Of a stretch of 64,000 bases of DNA, positions 1,008 through 61,796 are shown in pieces (position 1 is the first letter of the stretch; the number at the start of each line of letters is the position of its first letter). Under the pieces are notes generated by a model. That model saw only the letters and a program-made list of their open reading frames with translations. It did no database searches and was not told where the DNA came from. The stretch is from assembly GCA_964016885.1 (NCBI GenBank), contig OZ024742.1:107384001-107448000 (forward strand). Reading direction: 5' to 3'. This stretch comes from Eledone cirrhosa (lineage: Eukaryota). A program made the translations under genes and the position numbers.

Positions 1008-1120
1008 ACGATGATGTGGACGACTGCATTACTAAAGACCAGCTGGAGCAGGCTGCTAGCATGCTTTATGGACTAATTCATAATAGATATATCCTAACCA
1101 ATGCTGGTCTCAGTACTATG
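1008..1120 (+). CDS. CSNK2B: CK2beta alternative (duplicated) exon, paralogue of exon 2289-2404
   Basis: Acceptor ttttcttgtgttAG (ends 1007), donor ATG|GTAAGA (1121). 113 nt, phase 1 to phase 0, no stop. Translates (D)DDVDDCITKDQLEQAASMLYGLIHNRYILTNAGLSTM, homologous to CK2beta residues ~59-97. Confidence 0.8.
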
Positions 1121-2288
1121 GTAAGAATTTGTCTGCTTCCTGCCATGATCCTTTTGTATGTTTAAAAAAAATTGTTCTTCCTATTTTTTTGCCTTGCATA
1201 CTCTGACATTCTCAATCTGAAATGCCTTCGGCTGTGTTTGTTTTTCCTGCCTAACTTTAATACCTATTTGAGAGAATTTAGTTCAGGATAGCTAAATTTT
1301 ACATTTTTGATGCTTCTGTCTATATTATTTACTGTATTGTGTCTGGAGAAAAAAAGTTGCTAATAGACTATGCTGGATTAGAACTGTCAATTCATGTAAA
1401 ATTGGTGCAGTCAGTATGAATCTTGAAGAGTTAACATTTAGGATGTTGTGGGGTCAGATGAGGAAGTGTTGGTGCCATGATAAAAAGCACACAGTTCACC
1501 CTATAATGGTTATGCCAGAGTCGCAGTAAAATGCCAAAAACGGAGTATACGAGCAAGATGTAGTCACCTCACCTGTCTAACCTCAGTATGTGACTTCCCA
1601 TCTAATTCATGCAAATATGAAAAATAAACGTTAAATGGTGATGATGATATCAATAGAATACATACTCCAAGATGGAATTTTGATTAATAGACAGTATATT
1701 TCCCTTTTTCCTGTTAAAGAAACTATACTTTCTAAACAGTTGTTCAGCCAATTTTGGCAAAAGGATTTCCAAAGGTACATGAAAATAGATGTTTGGCTGA
1801 GTAACAACACTTAAATATCTTCAAAACATTTGTTGTAAATACTTATATATTTAATTAATAAGCAGTTATAAGAAATAGAGATAATGACATAACTAGCTTA
1901 TAAATATCAACTAATTAGAATAAATCTAAGTGATCATTTAATTAAAATCTGAAACATCATATAGTACTTAGAGTTTACTGCTATTAATAGCATCAATTGT
2001 TTATATAGAATTTAGATTTGATTGAAGGACTTGGGTTATGTGTTTTCTCCTCATAATTTTTGTGGTGGTGTTTATTTTCTGATGAATGTTTTAAGTTTGC
2101 ATCTAATTCCTAAATACTTTTTTTTTCTATTTATATTTTACACACACACACACACATATATACATATATACAAAATGTGTGTAAAATAAAATTGTTTATA
2201 TATATATATATCAATTGATTCTGAAGAGTTATTGATCAGAATTGGTTGAGTGAGAGTTGATGGCTGTAAATGATTTATCGTTATACAG

Positions 2289-2404
2289 ATGATGAACTTG
2301 AAGATAATCCAAACCAAAGTGATTTGATTGAGCAAGCTGCTGAGATGCTGTATGGTTTGATCCATGCACGTTACATAATGACTAATAGGGGCATAGCTCA
2401 AATG
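2289..2404 (+). CDS. CSNK2B: CK2beta canonical exon (acidic loop and following helices, human residues ~59-97)
   Basis: tatacAG|AT...ATG|GTAAGC. 116 nt encoding (D)[38 protein letters not shown], nearly identical to human CK2beta. Confidence 0.97.
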
Positions 2405-6479: not shown

Positions 6480-6555
6480 ATTGAAAAATGGCAGCAAGGT
6501 GATTTTGGTTACTGTCCTCGAGTTTATTGTGAGAACCAACCGATGTTACCTATTG
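6480..6555 (+). CDS. CSNK2B: CK2beta exon, first half of zinc finger
   Basis: ttttttgacAG|ATT...ATT G|GTGAGT. 76 nt encoding [25 protein letters not shown](G). Confidence 0.97.
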
Positions 6556-8928: not shown

Positions 8929-9118
8929 GTCTCACAGATGTACCTGGTGAAGCAATGGTAAAGTTGTATTGTCCAAAATGCCAAGATGTTTACACACCCA
9001 AATCTTCTCGTCACCACCACACTGATGGAGCATATTTTGGCTCTGGTTTCCCACACATGTTGTTTATGGTCCATCCTGAATACAGACCCAAGCGTCCTGC
9101 AAACCAGTTTATTCCAAG
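8929..9118 (+). CDS. CSNK2B: CK2beta exon, second half of zinc finger
   Basis: ttttttctatttgatAG|GT...CCA AG|GTAGAG. 190 nt encoding [63 protein letters not shown](R). Confidence 0.98.
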
Positions 9119-10553: not shown

Positions 10554-10566
10554 GCTACAGTGTCAA

Positions 10567-10655
10567 CCACATGTGCTGACTCTTGAGCAGACCAGCTGTC
10601 AGTTCCTGTTTAGCCACATGTGCTGACTCTGAGCAGACCAGCTGTCAGTTCCTGT
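10567..10655 (+). repeat. Tandem duplication (~47-bp period) in CK2beta 3' UTR
   Basis: ccacatgtgctgactc(t)tgagcagaccagctgtcagttcctgt occurs at 10567 and 10614. Confidence 0.9.
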
Positions 10656-10690
10656 GAAACAAAAAACAAAAATGAATCTTCGTTACTGAC

Positions 10691-11775
10691 AATAAAAACA
10701 CTTCCTGTCTTTTATTTTATATTTTTTTTATTTTTTATTTTTTTTATATCTAGCAATCAGTTTTGAACTCTCATCTAGCAGCAACAAACATTTGTAATTT
10801 TACTGGCTGTTACTATGAAAACTCCAGCTGGGTTGTTTTTTTTTTTTTGTTTTTTTTTTTTGTAATCTGCACGTGGAAGTGTCTGAAAAGATGGACAAAC
10901 AACTACTTTGGAAGTGGAAAGAAAAAACAATTACTGTTCTGTTACTTATATTAATATTCTGGAGGCTCTTTTTTTCTTTTTTCTTTTTTTTCTCCTGTTT
11001 CTATGGATCTTCTGGCTGAAATGATAAACTGTATTAAGTTGTTTTGATAATAATATTTGCATCTCTTCTTAAGAATGCTTAAGACGATATGGCATTTGAA
11101 ATAAAGAAGAATTAACATGGGAATGAGAAATATTGTGTTTGTGTGCATGAGTGAATAACGTTTATTTCAATAGCTTCAATTGGCATTATTGTCCAACATC
11201 ACCATCTCATTGGTGATTAATACAACTGGTACAGGACAGTTGTCAATGAAACATCACCATCTCATTGGTGATTAATATAACTGGTACAGGACAGTTGTCT
11301 ATGAAAAACTGAACAAATCTTACCCTTCCATAGTATTTGTTAGTCACCTAATCTTGACTCCGCATACTTATGGTGTGAATAAATGCAACATTATATAATT
11401 TCTCCATAAGTAATAGAAAAAACTTATTTTATTTTACTGTGACTTCATCTGGTTTCCTTGTTTTAGACAAGGAGTCTTTCACTGACCCTTTTCATCATTT
11501 CTACCTCCACCCCTTCATCATCAGGTGTGAACACACCAAAATGACTTACTACATTTAAAGCAAACTAAATTTGTATCTCTTAACTTATTTTCCCCCCCAT
11601 CAAGACTAACAACAGTGGATCTTAGACTGCAAGATCTAACCCAATTACACTTTTATATATATATGTATATATATATATATAGGTATGGAACTCACGTCTT
11701 CTCTTTCCTCTGAATTTCACTCGCGTTTTCCTTGCTAGAAAGCTTGCAGTGACTGTATATTTATGCATCAATAAA
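10691..11775 (+). promoter_or_regulatory. Candidate CK2beta polyadenylation signals
   Basis: AATAAA at 10691, 11378 and 11770 downstream of the stop; the first is followed by a U-rich tract. Which is used cannot be told from sequence. Confidence 0.45.
11195..11305 (+). repeat. Tandem duplication (55-bp period) in 3' UTR region
   Basis: aacatcaccatctcattggtgattaata(c/t)aactggtacaggacagttgtc(a/t)atga occurs at 11195 and 11250. Confidence 0.9.
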
Positions 11776-18499: not shown

Positions 18500-20125
18500 C
18501 TTAACAATGGATCATCATCAAACCTAAAGAAAGCTCTCAATGTTAAATTCAAAGACTTTGATATTTAAGGAGCTGTTCATTTTTTCTCTTCTCTGTCCTT
18601 CCTCACCCAGTGTAATACAGATTCTTTCCAGCGATTGACTGAGAAACATCCTTTGGCCCCTCTGGATGACCCACCAGGTTATTTACAACCAGTTTTCACC
18701 TCACATAACATCAGGAAGGCAATTGCACCCTTTTAGGTGGATTCTGGTGCAAATGATTGGTTTCTCCGTTGGGTGGAGATGCCGGCCTAGAGCTCTTGGA
18801 GAATCTGACCCAGTTTGTCAACATATTCTCGTCCAAGAGTGTCTCCCTTTGTTCTTTAGGGCTAAACTGTTTGACTTAGCAAAACCCAACAGCATTCTTC
18901 ACCCCATTGCGTTTGGGTGTGCTCTGCGATGGCTCAGAGCAAAAGTGTGTTTGTCATCAGCCTCAGACTACCTGTCAAGAGCTTTTATCAATTTGCCTCC
19001 TGAGGTCCCCCAATATTTTCCTCAAACTTGATCTCAAGAATGCCTTCAACTCCATCAAAAATGATGTCATCCTTCTCTCAGTAAAAAAGAAGGCTCCACA
19101 GCTCTACTTCTTTGCTTGGCAGGCTTATCAGGAGCCCCCTACCTCTCCTCTGGTGACAGATTCATCATATTTACCCAAGGAGTCCAACAAGATGACACGC
19201 TTGAACTTGCTCTGTTTGCACAAGGCATTGATGATGTTACTAAGGTAGAGGCTGACCTAGATTTGAATGTCTGGTAACTTGATGATGCTTGCTTGGGTGG
19301 TCCTACAACCTGTTGATGTGAAGCTTGATGGTTGATGAGCCATTTGGAGCTGTTGATAAGGAGCCCTCTATGACCAAGTTCTCAGAATCCTTCCCCTCTA
19401 TCGTAGTCTCTCCTTAATCGACAGTGTCCTCCCTATAGGCCTCAATTACTGATCTAGCTTTTGAACCCATCTTTCTATCCAAGATGGCTAACCTTAAGCA
19501 ACACTGAAATACATTGAAGTAATCGAGCCCCATCAAGGTTTTTTATACTTAGGAATGACCTATTGATTCTTGAGTTATTGTTTATGCTCAGAATCAGTCC
19601 CTCCTATAGATTCTCATCATTTCTCCAACACTTTTATGACCTAATCTTTGGTAAACTCGAATGCTTAGTGAATGTTAGACTCTTTCCAAGGCCTTGTAGC
19701 CAGGTAAATGTTCGTCTCTGTCTCTTCCCTGTTTTCTTTCTTCCATTCATGCTTGATTCCCTTTGGTGGGTAATATCCTCTCCTCTTCAACATGGACTAG
19801 TTCCAAGAGGGAGATGGATGAAGCTCTACTACAGTGGAGGGAGCTATGTTTGTCAGTTCTTAATACAGAGGAGGATTGACTGAAGCAGGAAGTTTGGGAC
19901 GATTTATGTTCGAGAGACACTTTCAACTCTCTCTTTGATTAATCTGATCAATTCTCAAGGTGCTGTCTATTTTTCATGAGTGCAAAATTCTCTGAGGACT
20001 GGGTTGATGTCCTGCCAACATTGGTGGCCTACTCCGCATCTCTACTGCATTCAAAGTAGGAGCTGATATCTGTGGTAGGTCCTTTGATTCCACAGGTCTT
20101 TATGGTTTGTCTTGCAAGACAAACT
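18500..20125 (+). mobile_element. Decayed CRE-like non-LTR retrotransposon, RT region
   Basis: LAKPNSILHPIAFGCALRWL (like KxxGGxRPIAVG), LKLDLKNAFNSI, GVQQDD (like GVQQGDPL), W*LDDA (like WYLDD), and a late GL.GLSC zinc-knuckle remnant. Multiple frameshifts. Confidence 0.8.
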
Positions 20126-22839: not shown

Positions 22840-23620
22840 TACAGAACTGGCCGACAGGACCGGCGAAGGCCTCTCTGTCCCCCAGTATACAAAGGTTATC
22901 AAGTGCATGTCTTCTGGCGGAACGAGTCTGGCTTGGACCAACAACGCTTCTACTGCTTCCGATCCACTTCGCTGCCAAACAGCGGTGCGTGGCTCAATTA
23001 GGTGCCCTCCTCATCAACCGGTACTCTTCTTGATGACGAGTACACTGGCATTGGAGTCCCCACCCCCGTTTGTGGACCTCACAAATTTCTAAAGAGGTAA
23101 ATCCTTCATCTGGGACGCCACATGGTGTGACCCGTTCTGCGCCTCCAACTTAGTCGCGTTGGCCACAAACCCCGGTACTGCGGCCCGCAATGCACAGGAT
23201 AGGAAGAAAACAAATACCGGGACTTGTCCGGCCGCTTCTCCTTTGCATCTGTCGCCGTCGAGATCTCAGGCGTCCCCGTACAGCCGACCTTCTCCGCAAA
23301 ATCGGAACGTTAGCAATCCGCCTGAGAAAGGAGCCACGCCAGGTGAGGGTGGCTGTTGCAGCGGGTGTCTCTGGCCATTGTCCGCGGAAATGCCTTTGCA
23401 ATTTTGTCCACGGGGCGCAGCCAAAACACCGCTCCGTCCTAGGCTTAGAGCCTGCCACCCTCTCCCCTCTTTTCCTTCCATGGCCTAATAGCCCTTACTC
23501 TTTCCCTCTTTTTCCTATCATTCATGGCATTTATAGTCCTTTCTTTTCCTTACCACGCAGCCAGATCTGTCCTTCTTTACCCCTTCACCCCATTTCTTTT
23601 CATTATTACTTTAAAAAAAA
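22840..23620 (+). mobile_element. CRE-like retrotransposon 3' fragment (restriction-like endonuclease region) with 3' UTR
   Basis: PNSGAWLN*VPSSSTGTLLDDE, then SFIWDATWCDPF and WLLQRVSLAIVRGNAFAI. GC-rich; followed by a pyrimidine-rich UTR and an A-run. The zinc-knuckle/RPD segment appears deleted. Confidence 0.78.
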
Positions 23621-23660
23621 ATAAAGTCGTCTTTTATTCACAGTTGGATAAAAATATAAT

Positions 23661-41099: not shown

Positions 41100-41953
41100 T
41101 AAGGCAGATTGTATGATGCTTGTATACGAACAGCAATGCTACATGGCAGTGAGACATGGGCATTGCGTGCAGAGGACCTGCGTAGACTGGAAAGGAACGA
41201 AGCATGCATGCTCCGTTGGATGTGTAATAGTAACATACGTGAACGGCAAAGCATAAATGAACTAAGTGAGAAATTAGGAATAAGAGGGATCAGATGCTGT
41301 TTACTTGAGAGAAGACTACGTTGGTATGGCCACGTGATGCGCATGAAAGACGACGACAGCTGTATAAAAAAGTGCAGGGCGATCAAAATTGATGGTAGTT
41401 ACGGAGTAGGTAGACCCAGAAAAACCTGGGACGATCTGATAAATTCTGACCTTACACACTTACACCTCTCTAAGACAATGTCACTGGACCGAGATCTTTG
41501 GCGCTACGCAGTAATACAGGAGACCCGCCTTGCCTATGTACAAAGCGAAACCTACAGCCAGTAGGCACCTCTTAACCAAATATACACCCCATTCCACTTA
41601 CCCCTACCCTATCCTCCCACTCCCACCAACACCACTCCCTCTCTATAAAGTTGGTACCACAACATCCAGTCCAAATAAATGAGATAAATGAGATTGAGAT
41701 CGTGTAAGTGTCACGAGAAAAAAAACACACAGTCCACGCTGTAATGTGGCCTTGTAGGTAGCACGGTAAAAAGTTCCCAGTTCCACACTGTAAATGTGGT
41801 TGGTGTTAGAAAGGGCATCCTGCTGTAGAAAACCTGCCAGATAGCCCTATATGAGCGAGACACGGTCACCTGACCAACCTTGCCTCAAGTGGGACAACTC
41901 CCGTCTAACCCATGCTAGCGTGGAAAGTGGACGTTAAACGAGGATGATGATGA
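41100..41953 (+). mobile_element. 5'-truncated RTE-clade LINE (ORF C-terminus, 3' UTR, (GAT)n tail)
   Basis: LYDACIRTAMLHGSETW, RRLRWYGHVMR and GRPRKTW; stop at 41564; ends ...ggacgttaaacgaggatgatgatgat. Confidence 0.9.
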
Positions 41954-58215: not shown

Positions 58216-59030
58216 GATAGCAACTAACAGCGCTGCGATCGAATGTGGCTTTTTAGCCCAGCCAATGATCTAAAATGTCTTGCACAGAGTCGGCAACCAA
58301 AACATTAACTGGGAATAGCCGGCTGTGGTTGGAGTTCATGTACTTTTGCATGTCACTTGAGCCCTCCTGCTGATTTACATTCTCTACCACATGTTTGGCA
58401 AGCATGATGAGTAGCATCTCCAACAGCAGCCTGGTCGTCAACCACTGGTCTTACTTTATGACTGCGAAGATGACTTTCGAGTCCAGCTTTGCTTAGGCAG
58501 AGTCTCGCACAGACGCTGCATGTCAGCGCCATAGGAGGACCCTCGCTGTCTGGAAGTGCAACAGTAATGCCCTTCCTCACATCCCGCTTTACTTTCTCGA
58601 ATGCGATTCGAGATGCCTCAAAGGCAACCTTTCCCTCATATACAGTCTTTCTCCATTTATTACGATCAGCAGCAATATTTTCCCATGTATCAGCAGAGAT
58701 GTTAGCGTCTTCCAAAAAGGCTTTCAAGGAATCGTTATACCTCTTTTTTGGTTTATGTGGCGGTCGTTTTCCTTTAACCAACTCTCCATAAAAGAGTTGT
58801 TTGGTATTCTAGAATCCTTCATCCTGGCAAGGTGACCACTCCACATAGAGCTTTCCAAAATCTCGACATCACTGATGTGGTCCCTCCAGTGAACGCCTTG
58901 GATCCGTCTGAGACACATCTGATGGAAACGCTCCAATTGCTTAAGGTGGTGTCGATATGTGACCCAGGTCTCGCAGGCATAAAGAAGACAAGAGAGCACC
59001 CATGCCTTGTACACCTTTACCTTTGTCCTC
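58216..59030 (-). mobile_element. 5'-truncated RTE-clade LINE with three C-terminal C2H2 zinc fingers
   Basis: [49 protein letters not shown] and WENIAADRNKWR, followed by three CxxC-x12-HxxxH-type units. Confidence 0.87.
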
Positions 59031-60016: not shown

Positions 60017-61796
60017 GTAACTTTGAATAACTTTGAAATGTTTTGGCCAGTATTGGCCCAGGCCATGTCTAACTTAATAGCACCACCTGGCGAAGTCTTT
60101 CAATTCAGGATTTGGGCACCATGGCCCATTCGAGAAGAGAATTACTGTTTGCGGAGACATATCCGGGTGTGGGTGGTTTGTCCGGGATTACTTGGAGGAA
60201 TTTGTCCAAAGACTTCTTGAATTTTGTGTGGTCAGTTTCTGTTTTGACGTGTCCTGGTGTGATGTTGAAGAGAGCAGGGCCGATTGAGGTGAAATAATTG
60301 TGCCGTATTGTTGTTATGAGTTGCGATTTAGATTTTTGAATGGGACGGATAGCACGGGGCCCAAGCCTTGGGTGTATCTTGAAGGCGATGCCAACATCAT
60401 TTGGCCAGTGATGATGGAACATTTTCCACATCATGCAGATAATATAACGCTCACGGCGACGTTGGAGTGAGTAAAGTTTCAGGTTTTCCAATCGACCCCA
60501 GTAGTCAAGGTCTGACATGCCATCTATCTTTTTCGTGATTGCCCTTTGAGGAGCTTCAAGTTTCATGATACTTTGTTTCGTGTGGGGAGACCACAGTGGA
60601 CAACAGTATTCAAGGTGTGGTCGGGCGAAAGTAGAGAAGAGAAGGATAATGGTGCGGGAATCTCTCGACTGGAAGGTTCTGAGGATCCAGGAACACATTC
60701 TGCGGGCCATGTCAACTTTGCTGCTTATATGCGTGGTCCAGCTTATGTTGCTGTCCACGGTTACTCCCAAGTCTCTGATGTTGTTAGATGCCACGAGAGT
60801 TTCCCCGGAGGGAAGGGAGTACGGGAGTTTCAGAGCATCCTCTTTTCCAAAGTGGATCAGTTCGAATTTGTCTTCGTTCAGTAACATGTTGTTCTTTTCT
60901 GCCCATTGGGTAACAGCCAGTAGGTCTGACTGAAGGCTTATCCGGTCATCCACGCCATTGATGACCTTTTGGAGCTTGGAATCATCAGCGAAAATTTTAA
61001 TGTTGCTGTGTTTAATGTTGCTGTGTTTGATGATGTCAGTGATGTCATTAATATAGATGATGAAGAGAAGTGGGCCCAACACAGTGCCTTGTGGGACTCC
61101 ACTACTGACTTTGGCTGGGCTTGATTTGACTCCCTCAACTACAACATGTTGGGTTCTGTTTGACAGGAAGCTCTTGATCCACTGCAGCAGCTTTCCAGTG
61201 ACACCAATATTAGACAGCTTTCTCAGTAGAATGTTATGATCAACCCTGTCAAAGGCCTTGCTGAAATCAAGGTAGATAACATCAGTGTTGGAACCCTCTC
61301 CCAAGGCTCTCAAAATGTCATCAAAGTGATGCAGTAGTTGCGTCAGGCAATCCCTTCCATTACGGAATCCATGCTGGTTGGAGTTCAGCATATTGTTACT
61401 CTCAAGGAAGTGGGTCATTCGCGATCTCACCACTCGCTCAAATACCTTAATGATATGAGAGGTGAGTGAGATTGGACGGTAATTCACGGCAAGGGATTTG
61501 TTTCCCTTTTTGAAAACTGGGACAACAGACTGGGATAGAAGGTTTTCTGGCACATATCCAGCATCCAGTGAGTTCCGCCACAGATTGGCAAGAGGAGAAG
61601 CAAGTTGGTGTTGACACGCCTTCAAGACACAAGCAGGGAACCTATCGGGACCTACTGCTGAATTATGCTTGATTTCCTTTATTGCCGCCAAGACATCAGG
61701 GGCGCCAAACGTTATGTCCGATAAGGTGTAATGGGGAGTAACATCGCCGATACAGCCCAGATCGGCCATATCAGGATTGCTGAAAACAGAGCAGTA
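60017..61796 (-). mobile_element. 5'-truncated CR1-group LINE with uninterrupted RT ORF (60105-61769+)
   Basis: [60 protein letters not shown] and SLQRRRER. The frame extends to YCSVFS at 61796. Short 3' UTR ending in (TTCAAAGTTA)2. No endonuclease domain present. Confidence 0.92.

Follow-up and report, generated by a model that had tools for sequence, protein, structure and literature searches.

The window, a stretch of 64,000 nucleotides from Eledone cirrhosa, covers the 3' portion of a CK2-beta gene that is present in one copy and in which two consecutive homologous exons, named here A and B, encode alternative versions of the same protein segment. These exons are tandem duplicates, and the reading frame is kept if either is used without the other; A is likely a regulated, minor and tissue-restricted substitute for B that arose before cephalopods and gastropods split. 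The anatomy of the pair, its frame logic and the early stops left by the other exon combinations can be read directly from the genome, and an A-type exon is conserved in two octopus species and in caenogastropods.

Coordinates of the exons are presented in Table 1. Both A and B are flanked by AG and GT and have equal phases, and re-measurement agreed with the original prediction in coordinates, lengths (113 and 116 nt), AG/GT ends and phases. The two are alike in length and either of them alone restores the full open reading frame, as in tandem-duplicated mutually exclusive exons of a single gene. Genome-wide search with exon B gave two matches, namely B itself and A (E 2.5e-5), and therefore the likeness between A and B is not due to chance. 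Neither a third copy of the exon nor a duplicate of any other CK2-beta exon could be detected by tblastn in the window and 40 kb upstream.

Table 1. Exons of the E. cirrhosa CK2-beta gene and the intron between A and B. Positions refer to the window unless another sequence is named.
Feature	Position	Strand	Details
Exon A	1008..1120	+	113 nt; phase 1 to 0; residues 59-97 less one (human numbering)
Intron between A and B	1121..2288	+	GT-AG; 1168 nt; dispersed repeat near 1460-1650
Exon B (canonical)	2289..2404	+	116 nt; phase 1 to 0; residues 59-97
Next constitutive exon	6480..6555	+	76 nt; phase 0 to 1; encodes the first cysteines of the zinc finger
Constitutive exon	8929..9118	+	190 nt
Last coding exon, up to stop codon	10445..10553	+	
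Two upstream CK2-beta coding exons	L007:363-434 and L007:2386-2488		outside the window, from the same genome

Products were reconstructed by joining the two upstream exons of the same genome to A and/or B and to the three downstream exons. The B-only product consists of 221 aa and is identical (221/221) to XP_014774254.1 of O. bimaculoides, and the A-only product consists of 220 aa. CK2-beta protein P0002 matches the human CK2-beta structure 1jwh_C over its full length (E 4e-135), and the four zinc cysteines and the C-terminal tail expected of a CK2-beta family member (PF01214) are present. Joining of A and B leads to a stop after 108 aa (codon 109), which ends at nt 327 and lies 77 nt before the B-to-next junction, later junctions being at nt 404 and beyond. 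Skipping of both exons leads to a stop after 59 aa, which ends at nt 180 and lies 71 nt before the next junction, later junctions being at nt 251 and beyond. The frame shift predicted for inclusion of both or neither was thus borne out, and both stops are located more than 50 nt upstream of a later junction, as required where frame plus nonsense-mediated decay (NMD) enforces exclusivity.

In the models from O. sinensis, O. bimaculoides and O. vulgaris the N-terminus is extended by an upstream exon; no coding stretch matching these octopus extensions was found by motif search in the 40 kb upstream (L007:350-362 and upstream). Two short tandem duplications with units of about 45-50 nt are located at 10560-10660 and 11190-11300 of the window, in the presumed CK2-beta 3' UTR. 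Towards the far end of the window, a long open stretch on the minus strand (60105-61780) runs 5'-truncated into an AT-rich microsatellite; we take it to be the reverse transcriptase of a non-LTR retrotransposon, and shorter fragments at 18639-19883, 23093-23624, 41103-41564 and 58353-58808 are presumably retroelement-like as well.

The exclusivity of the pair had been called obligatory, which holds for productive mRNA, but the 1168-nt GT-AG intron permits inclusion of both exons in one transcript. Among the four mechanisms of exclusivity catalogued in PMC6071210, frame plus NMD is the only one for which positive evidence is present, the decay itself being predicted. The length of the intervening intron speaks against a steric block, and no distant branch point was found ahead of B, where the AG-exclusion zone is 30 nt. 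All six introns are GT-AG with ordinary donors, leaving no U2/U12 incompatibility. An inverted-repeat search of the E. cirrhosa introns alone gave no credible docking-selector pairing among the top 25 of 197 and the top 25 of 117 repeats, which are mostly dispersed repeats and microsatellites. In contrast to the exons that are held apart by other means, neither a competing RNA structure nor a short intron nor a mix of U12 and U2 was found in the CK2-beta pair. Exclusivity therefore probably rests on frame and NMD rather than on a physical block, and with this as the sole mechanism supported, the choice between A and B is most likely made by splicing factors. The 145 nt that follow the exon A donor (1126-1270) are free of AG and 67% pyrimidine, with branch-point-like CTGAC (1203) and CTAAC (1251) and the first AG at about 1270. 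This stretch could be a candidate silencer or a cryptic acceptor but is not significant alone; it shares 6th place among the 3265 AG-free runs of the window, and 3% of positions fall in such runs.

In the mechanism that we propose, B would be the default exon and a tissue-specific splicing factor would switch from B to A, while transcripts with both exons or with neither would be removed by NMD. Base rates are the only guide to the tissue in which A may be used. Human tandem-exon events surveyed in PMC9741552 are tissue-enriched in 57 of 81 cases, with 31 in nervous tissue, and by this measure nervous tissue would be the best guess; gonad would come second, with the testis paralogues of the fly as a second precedent.

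Search with exon A gave two matches among three candidates, one being an intron-flanked ORF and the other RefSeq XP_036361111.1, isoform X2 of O. sinensis CK2-beta, which uses A instead of B, whereas isoforms X1 and X3 use B. Exon A of E. cirrhosa is identical to the exon in this isoform at 32/37 positions. These three models place A and B alone in distinct predicted transcripts. In the 12-member protein cluster B is used in 11 members and A in one, and no A-form model was seen for O. bimaculoides, both of whose models listed in the cluster use B. The sole spliced A-form protein is this one computed RefSeq model and is thus a predicted one, as the A-type records from Logan/ENA are all intron-flanked ORFs. 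A second O. sinensis record (P0119, 'CK2 beta-like') on a 96-kb contig shows no difference from the main gene over the region of exon B and is probably a haplotype duplicate in that assembly.

Contigs of four sequencing runs (runs X1-X4, not to be confused with the RefSeq isoforms), which were guessed as RNA (share 0.05, 4/7 rows), were aligned to the region. In run X4 a single continuous contig of 1230 nt (depth 10.9) spans exon A together with the intron sequence on either side of it, and no junction read of A was seen. Exon B forms a separate 119-nt contig that ends at the donor, with a depth of 21.1 as compared to about 10 for intron-bearing contigs, and the start of this contig consists of three bases common to the end of the upstream exon and the end of the intron. 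This pattern fits splicing of B with A left unspliced in that sample. No joint into exon A was present among the 15 joints listed of 62 for the run contigs on the region. In runs X1-X3 the bin of exon A is uncovered at 85% likeness and exon B is hardly covered, and these runs are uninformative. The upstream-exon contig in runs X2 and X3 stops one letter beyond the exon end, and A and B begin with the same base; this contig end fits an A/B branch and equally a synonymous variant in B. As no spliced A joint was seen and A is unspliced in X4, exon A is at best minor or restricted. For the junction check suggested with the original prediction, the contigs fit splicing of B and no joint into A was seen among those listed. 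The predicted use of A in place of the canonical exon is supported by the modelled O. sinensis isoform X2 and by conserved copies in gastropods.

These gastropod copies were found by searches with the A regions of O. sinensis and Pomacea (120 matches listed of 288 and of 300) and by a profile search (150 matches listed of 1250). Pomacea canaliculata PVD21834.1 and Nucella lapillus KAL8561188.1 each have a further copy, shorter by one residue, that lies upstream of the canonical exon. Both models fuse A and B in one frame and are mis-predictions, which show the exon and not its use. A full A-type exon is present in six intron-flanked ORFs (P0133, P0317, P0318, P0320, P0321 and P0322), one of which matches the Pomacea model. 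Within the exon these are 32-37/37 identical among themselves and all end at an M/V boundary, as a donor would give, while for 14 of 15 pairs just 1-3 of 14 residues match in the downstream flanks. The ENA records P0133 (A type) and P0329 (B type) have the same longest contig of 166,591 and probably lie on one contig. Among the cluster representatives, one per cluster and with isoforms hidden, no A-type exon was recognised from a named bivalve or decapod cephalopod, from the limpet Lottia, or from an annelid or a nemertean. The double copies seen in Ancylostoma P0014 and Timema P0132 extend over several exons, for which reason they were discarded as model or assembly duplications, and P0319 and P0324 contain short internal repeats of other kinds. 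Lepidopteran 'CK2 beta-like' records (P0047, P0120 and P0123) have divergent loops in the same segment and are apparently separate paralogues.

In the EQAA..TN block A and B are identical at 16/19 residues with nine synonymous codon differences, exactly as had been counted. The 27 codons that align without gaps have a pS of 0.90 against a pN of 0.29 (Fisher p 5e-6), indicating that the duplicate is old. Exon A differs from run X4 at 12 positions, of which the 11 listed comprise 5 synonymous and 6 non-synonymous differences (6-7 in all), giving an omega of about 0.3 (0.28-0.33) with a borderline p of 0.048-0.071. Exon B differs at two positions, the one listed being synonymous. With its 11-12 differences from X4 as compared to 2 in B, octopus exon A is the faster-evolving of the two. 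Purifying selection on both copies is indicated by this octopus omega, at its borderline p, and by the likeness of the snail-type A exons. The proposal of an old duplicate under purifying selection is thus supported, with isoform X2 and the gastropod copies on its side; of the two comparative checks proposed, that for the exon in other species succeeded in O. sinensis, Pomacea and Nucella, and that of dN/dS is borderline.

Two of the changes in E. cirrhosa exon A, E77S and A85N, are private to it, and with them the predicted change of IHAR to IHNR; O. sinensis A has D77 and A85 (IHAR), and among the CK2-beta copies counted E77 is found in 304/308 and A85 in 303/308. Changes at such nearly invariant positions could reflect relaxed selection in the E. 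cirrhosa lineage. Along with the faster change of A, its unspliced state in X4 and the missing A-form model for O. bimaculoides, they are what an exon once functional and now decaying in this octopus lineage would show. However, the frame and both splice sites are intact, no stop or indel is present, all of L79-H84, R86-N91, G93 and M97 are retained and omega is below 1, though with borderline significance, which makes decay improbable. We give still less credence to A as a regulatory poison exon, which, joined with B or prompting skipping, would turn the transcript into an NMD target and lower CK2-beta, the A-only protein being a by-product. The splice sites of A are good, no physical bar to double inclusion was found and the A+B stop at codon 109 falls 77 nt ahead of a junction, all of which would suit such a role. 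A poison exon, however, needs no conservation of its peptide, whereas records whose flanks are unrelated keep 32-37/37 residues of the snail A peptide in common; the octopus omega and the RefSeq model of an A-only form also argue against it. Alternative use of A in place of B remains the preferred reading.

Octopus and snail-type A exons have 38 instead of 39 residues, L89 and R92A in common, and the upstream position of A is seen in octopus, Pomacea and Nucella. We therefore think that they probably have one origin. Residue 92 was counted in 448 segment copies from 455 proteins fetched, a set enriched by A-type queries. Ala92 is present in 12 of these copies, all being A-type records or members of their clusters, and is absent from the other 436, where the residue is R in 399, S in 34 and V, K or L in one each. 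Exon A has L89 where the B exons of molluscs, annelids and nemerteans have M89, which leaves open a still older lophotrochozoan origin. The ancestor of cephalopods and gastropods dates to more than about 500 million years ago.

It is rather unlikely that the exon was duplicated twice independently, in octopods or cephalopods and again in caenogastropods, and that the shorter loop and R92A are convergent, with the same splice mechanism. In the 38-column peptide tree octopus and snail A groups are apart, though no alternative grouping is supported, and are joined in only 0-8% of bootstrap trees, octopus A and snail A are only 21-24/37 identical, and their linkers differ strongly (CITK or CVNK against NPSS). 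The failure to recognise an A-type exon in the named bivalve, limpet, annelid and decapod cephalopod points the same way, as do one-residue-shorter loops in Hydra and Thrips and the common convergence of tandem exon duplication described in PMC9741552. Convergence would however require the same exon, upstream position, 113-nt length, L89 and R92A to have arisen twice, the last with a residue that none of the other 436 copies has. A single A clade is not rejected by the AU test (p 0.28), and since the libraries searched hide isoforms within clusters, missing A-type exons elsewhere count for little. Peptide trees with and without Mnemiopsis are unresolved, octopus A being drawn to Mnemiopsis if it is present, and the 38-column tree neither shows nor rejects the one origin that we favour.

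CK2-beta's acidic loop comprises residues 55-70 and contacts a basic region of the neighbouring CK2-alpha, while E77 is located in a helix that extends the acidic groove (PMC9608649, PMC9983076); E77 and the loop are part of an acidic stretch mediating oligomer contacts (PMC9608649). The remodelled acidic loop of the original prediction did not hold in terms of charge, as residues 59-64 contain five acidic residues in B and in every A copy, with a net charge of -5 or -6 in A copies vs -6 in B. The predicted shortening by one residue is common with snails, where the linker is just shortened, whereas octopus A has CITK or CVNK for NPNQS; the predicted new Cys (Cys65) is present and octopus-only. 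The changes common to octopus and snail A are the shortening, L89 and R92A, and the neighbouring residues 94-96 are altered as well. No paper on CK2-beta Arg92 was found in the full-text literature searched, which leaves subscription journals and supplements aside.

The zinc finger and the C-terminal tail are encoded by constitutive exons, and the A/B segment lies outside both known interfaces. As these elements are untouched, the A form is expected from its sequence to dimerise and to bind CK2-alpha, and assembly of the holoenzyme should persist. It would keep the acidic charge of 59-64, with a 65-70 linker shorter by one residue, loss of the basic Arg92 and changed residues 94-96. Such changes may retune partner or substrate docking and self-association of the holoenzyme rather than abolish them. 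For the A form of O. sinensis, the model made by AlphaFold had a mean pLDDT of 52 from a shallow 33-row alignment and was set aside.

The pair resembles the tandem duplicated exon substitutions described in PMC9741552 and PMC6071210 in that two homologous exons follow one another with much the same length and matching phases, in the core residues kept, in having alternative use annotated and in a length that is not a multiple of three, which lets NMD enforce exclusivity. ATE1 7a/7b, OGDH 4a/4b and SCN 5a/5b are examples of such pairs, and CSNK2B has 0 mentions in the available main text of the human survey (PMC9741552). In Drosophila five splice isoforms of CK2-beta occur along with the paralogous genes CK2-beta', SSL/CK2-beta-tes and Stellate, so that a second regulatory subunit exists beside the conserved one, as is predicted for the octopus, partly testis-specific and functionally non-redundant in the fly (PMC5374408, PMC3359341). 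The fly splice isoforms, however, differ in the C-terminal tail only and keep the core, divergent fly cores being separate genes (PMC5374408), whereas in octopus the core itself is predicted to be swapped by splicing in a single-copy gene. Metazoans generally have one CK2-beta isoform, and splice diversity like that of the fly is described as unreported elsewhere in the available part of a 2016 review (PMC5374408).

The arrangement had been thought undescribed. We found no description of such a pair in CK2-beta of any animal in the full-text literature, a scope outside which subscription journals and supplements lie, but the arrangement is implicit in XP_036361111.1, where the orthologous exon, with its D77 and A85 in place of S and N in E. 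cirrhosa, replaces B. That annotation is automatic, comes without comment and holds nothing on gastropods; what is new beyond it is the depth of conservation seen in the gastropod A-type copies. Overall the A/B pair is real, likely functional and ordinary in mechanism, with its use in RNA and protein being predicted. More tentatively, and at somewhat less than even chances, the duplication of this exon, which encodes the end of the acidic loop and the helices after it, preceded the cephalopod-gastropod split and molluscs kept a cell-type-specific splice switch, neuronal or in the germ line, by which Arg92 is swapped, the loop is shortened and oligomerisation or substrate docking of the holoenzyme is altered.

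CK2 is constitutively active and its regulation is a long-standing question, and CK2-beta is nearly invariant. Exon A also flags a spot where gene predictors mis-join exons in snails. Human disease variants in the acidic loop and adjacent helices include E77K, Y80N, R86C and M97I (PMC9608649). If the proposed switch is true, it would be the first internal, core-changing splice isoform of CK2-beta known from animals, and, as a natural mutant, it would draw attention to an unmapped surface near residue 92. Such a conserved core-swap isoform would provide two naturally occurring subunits, set apart by a few residues in the acidic loop and the adjacent helices, which could be expressed and compared directly.
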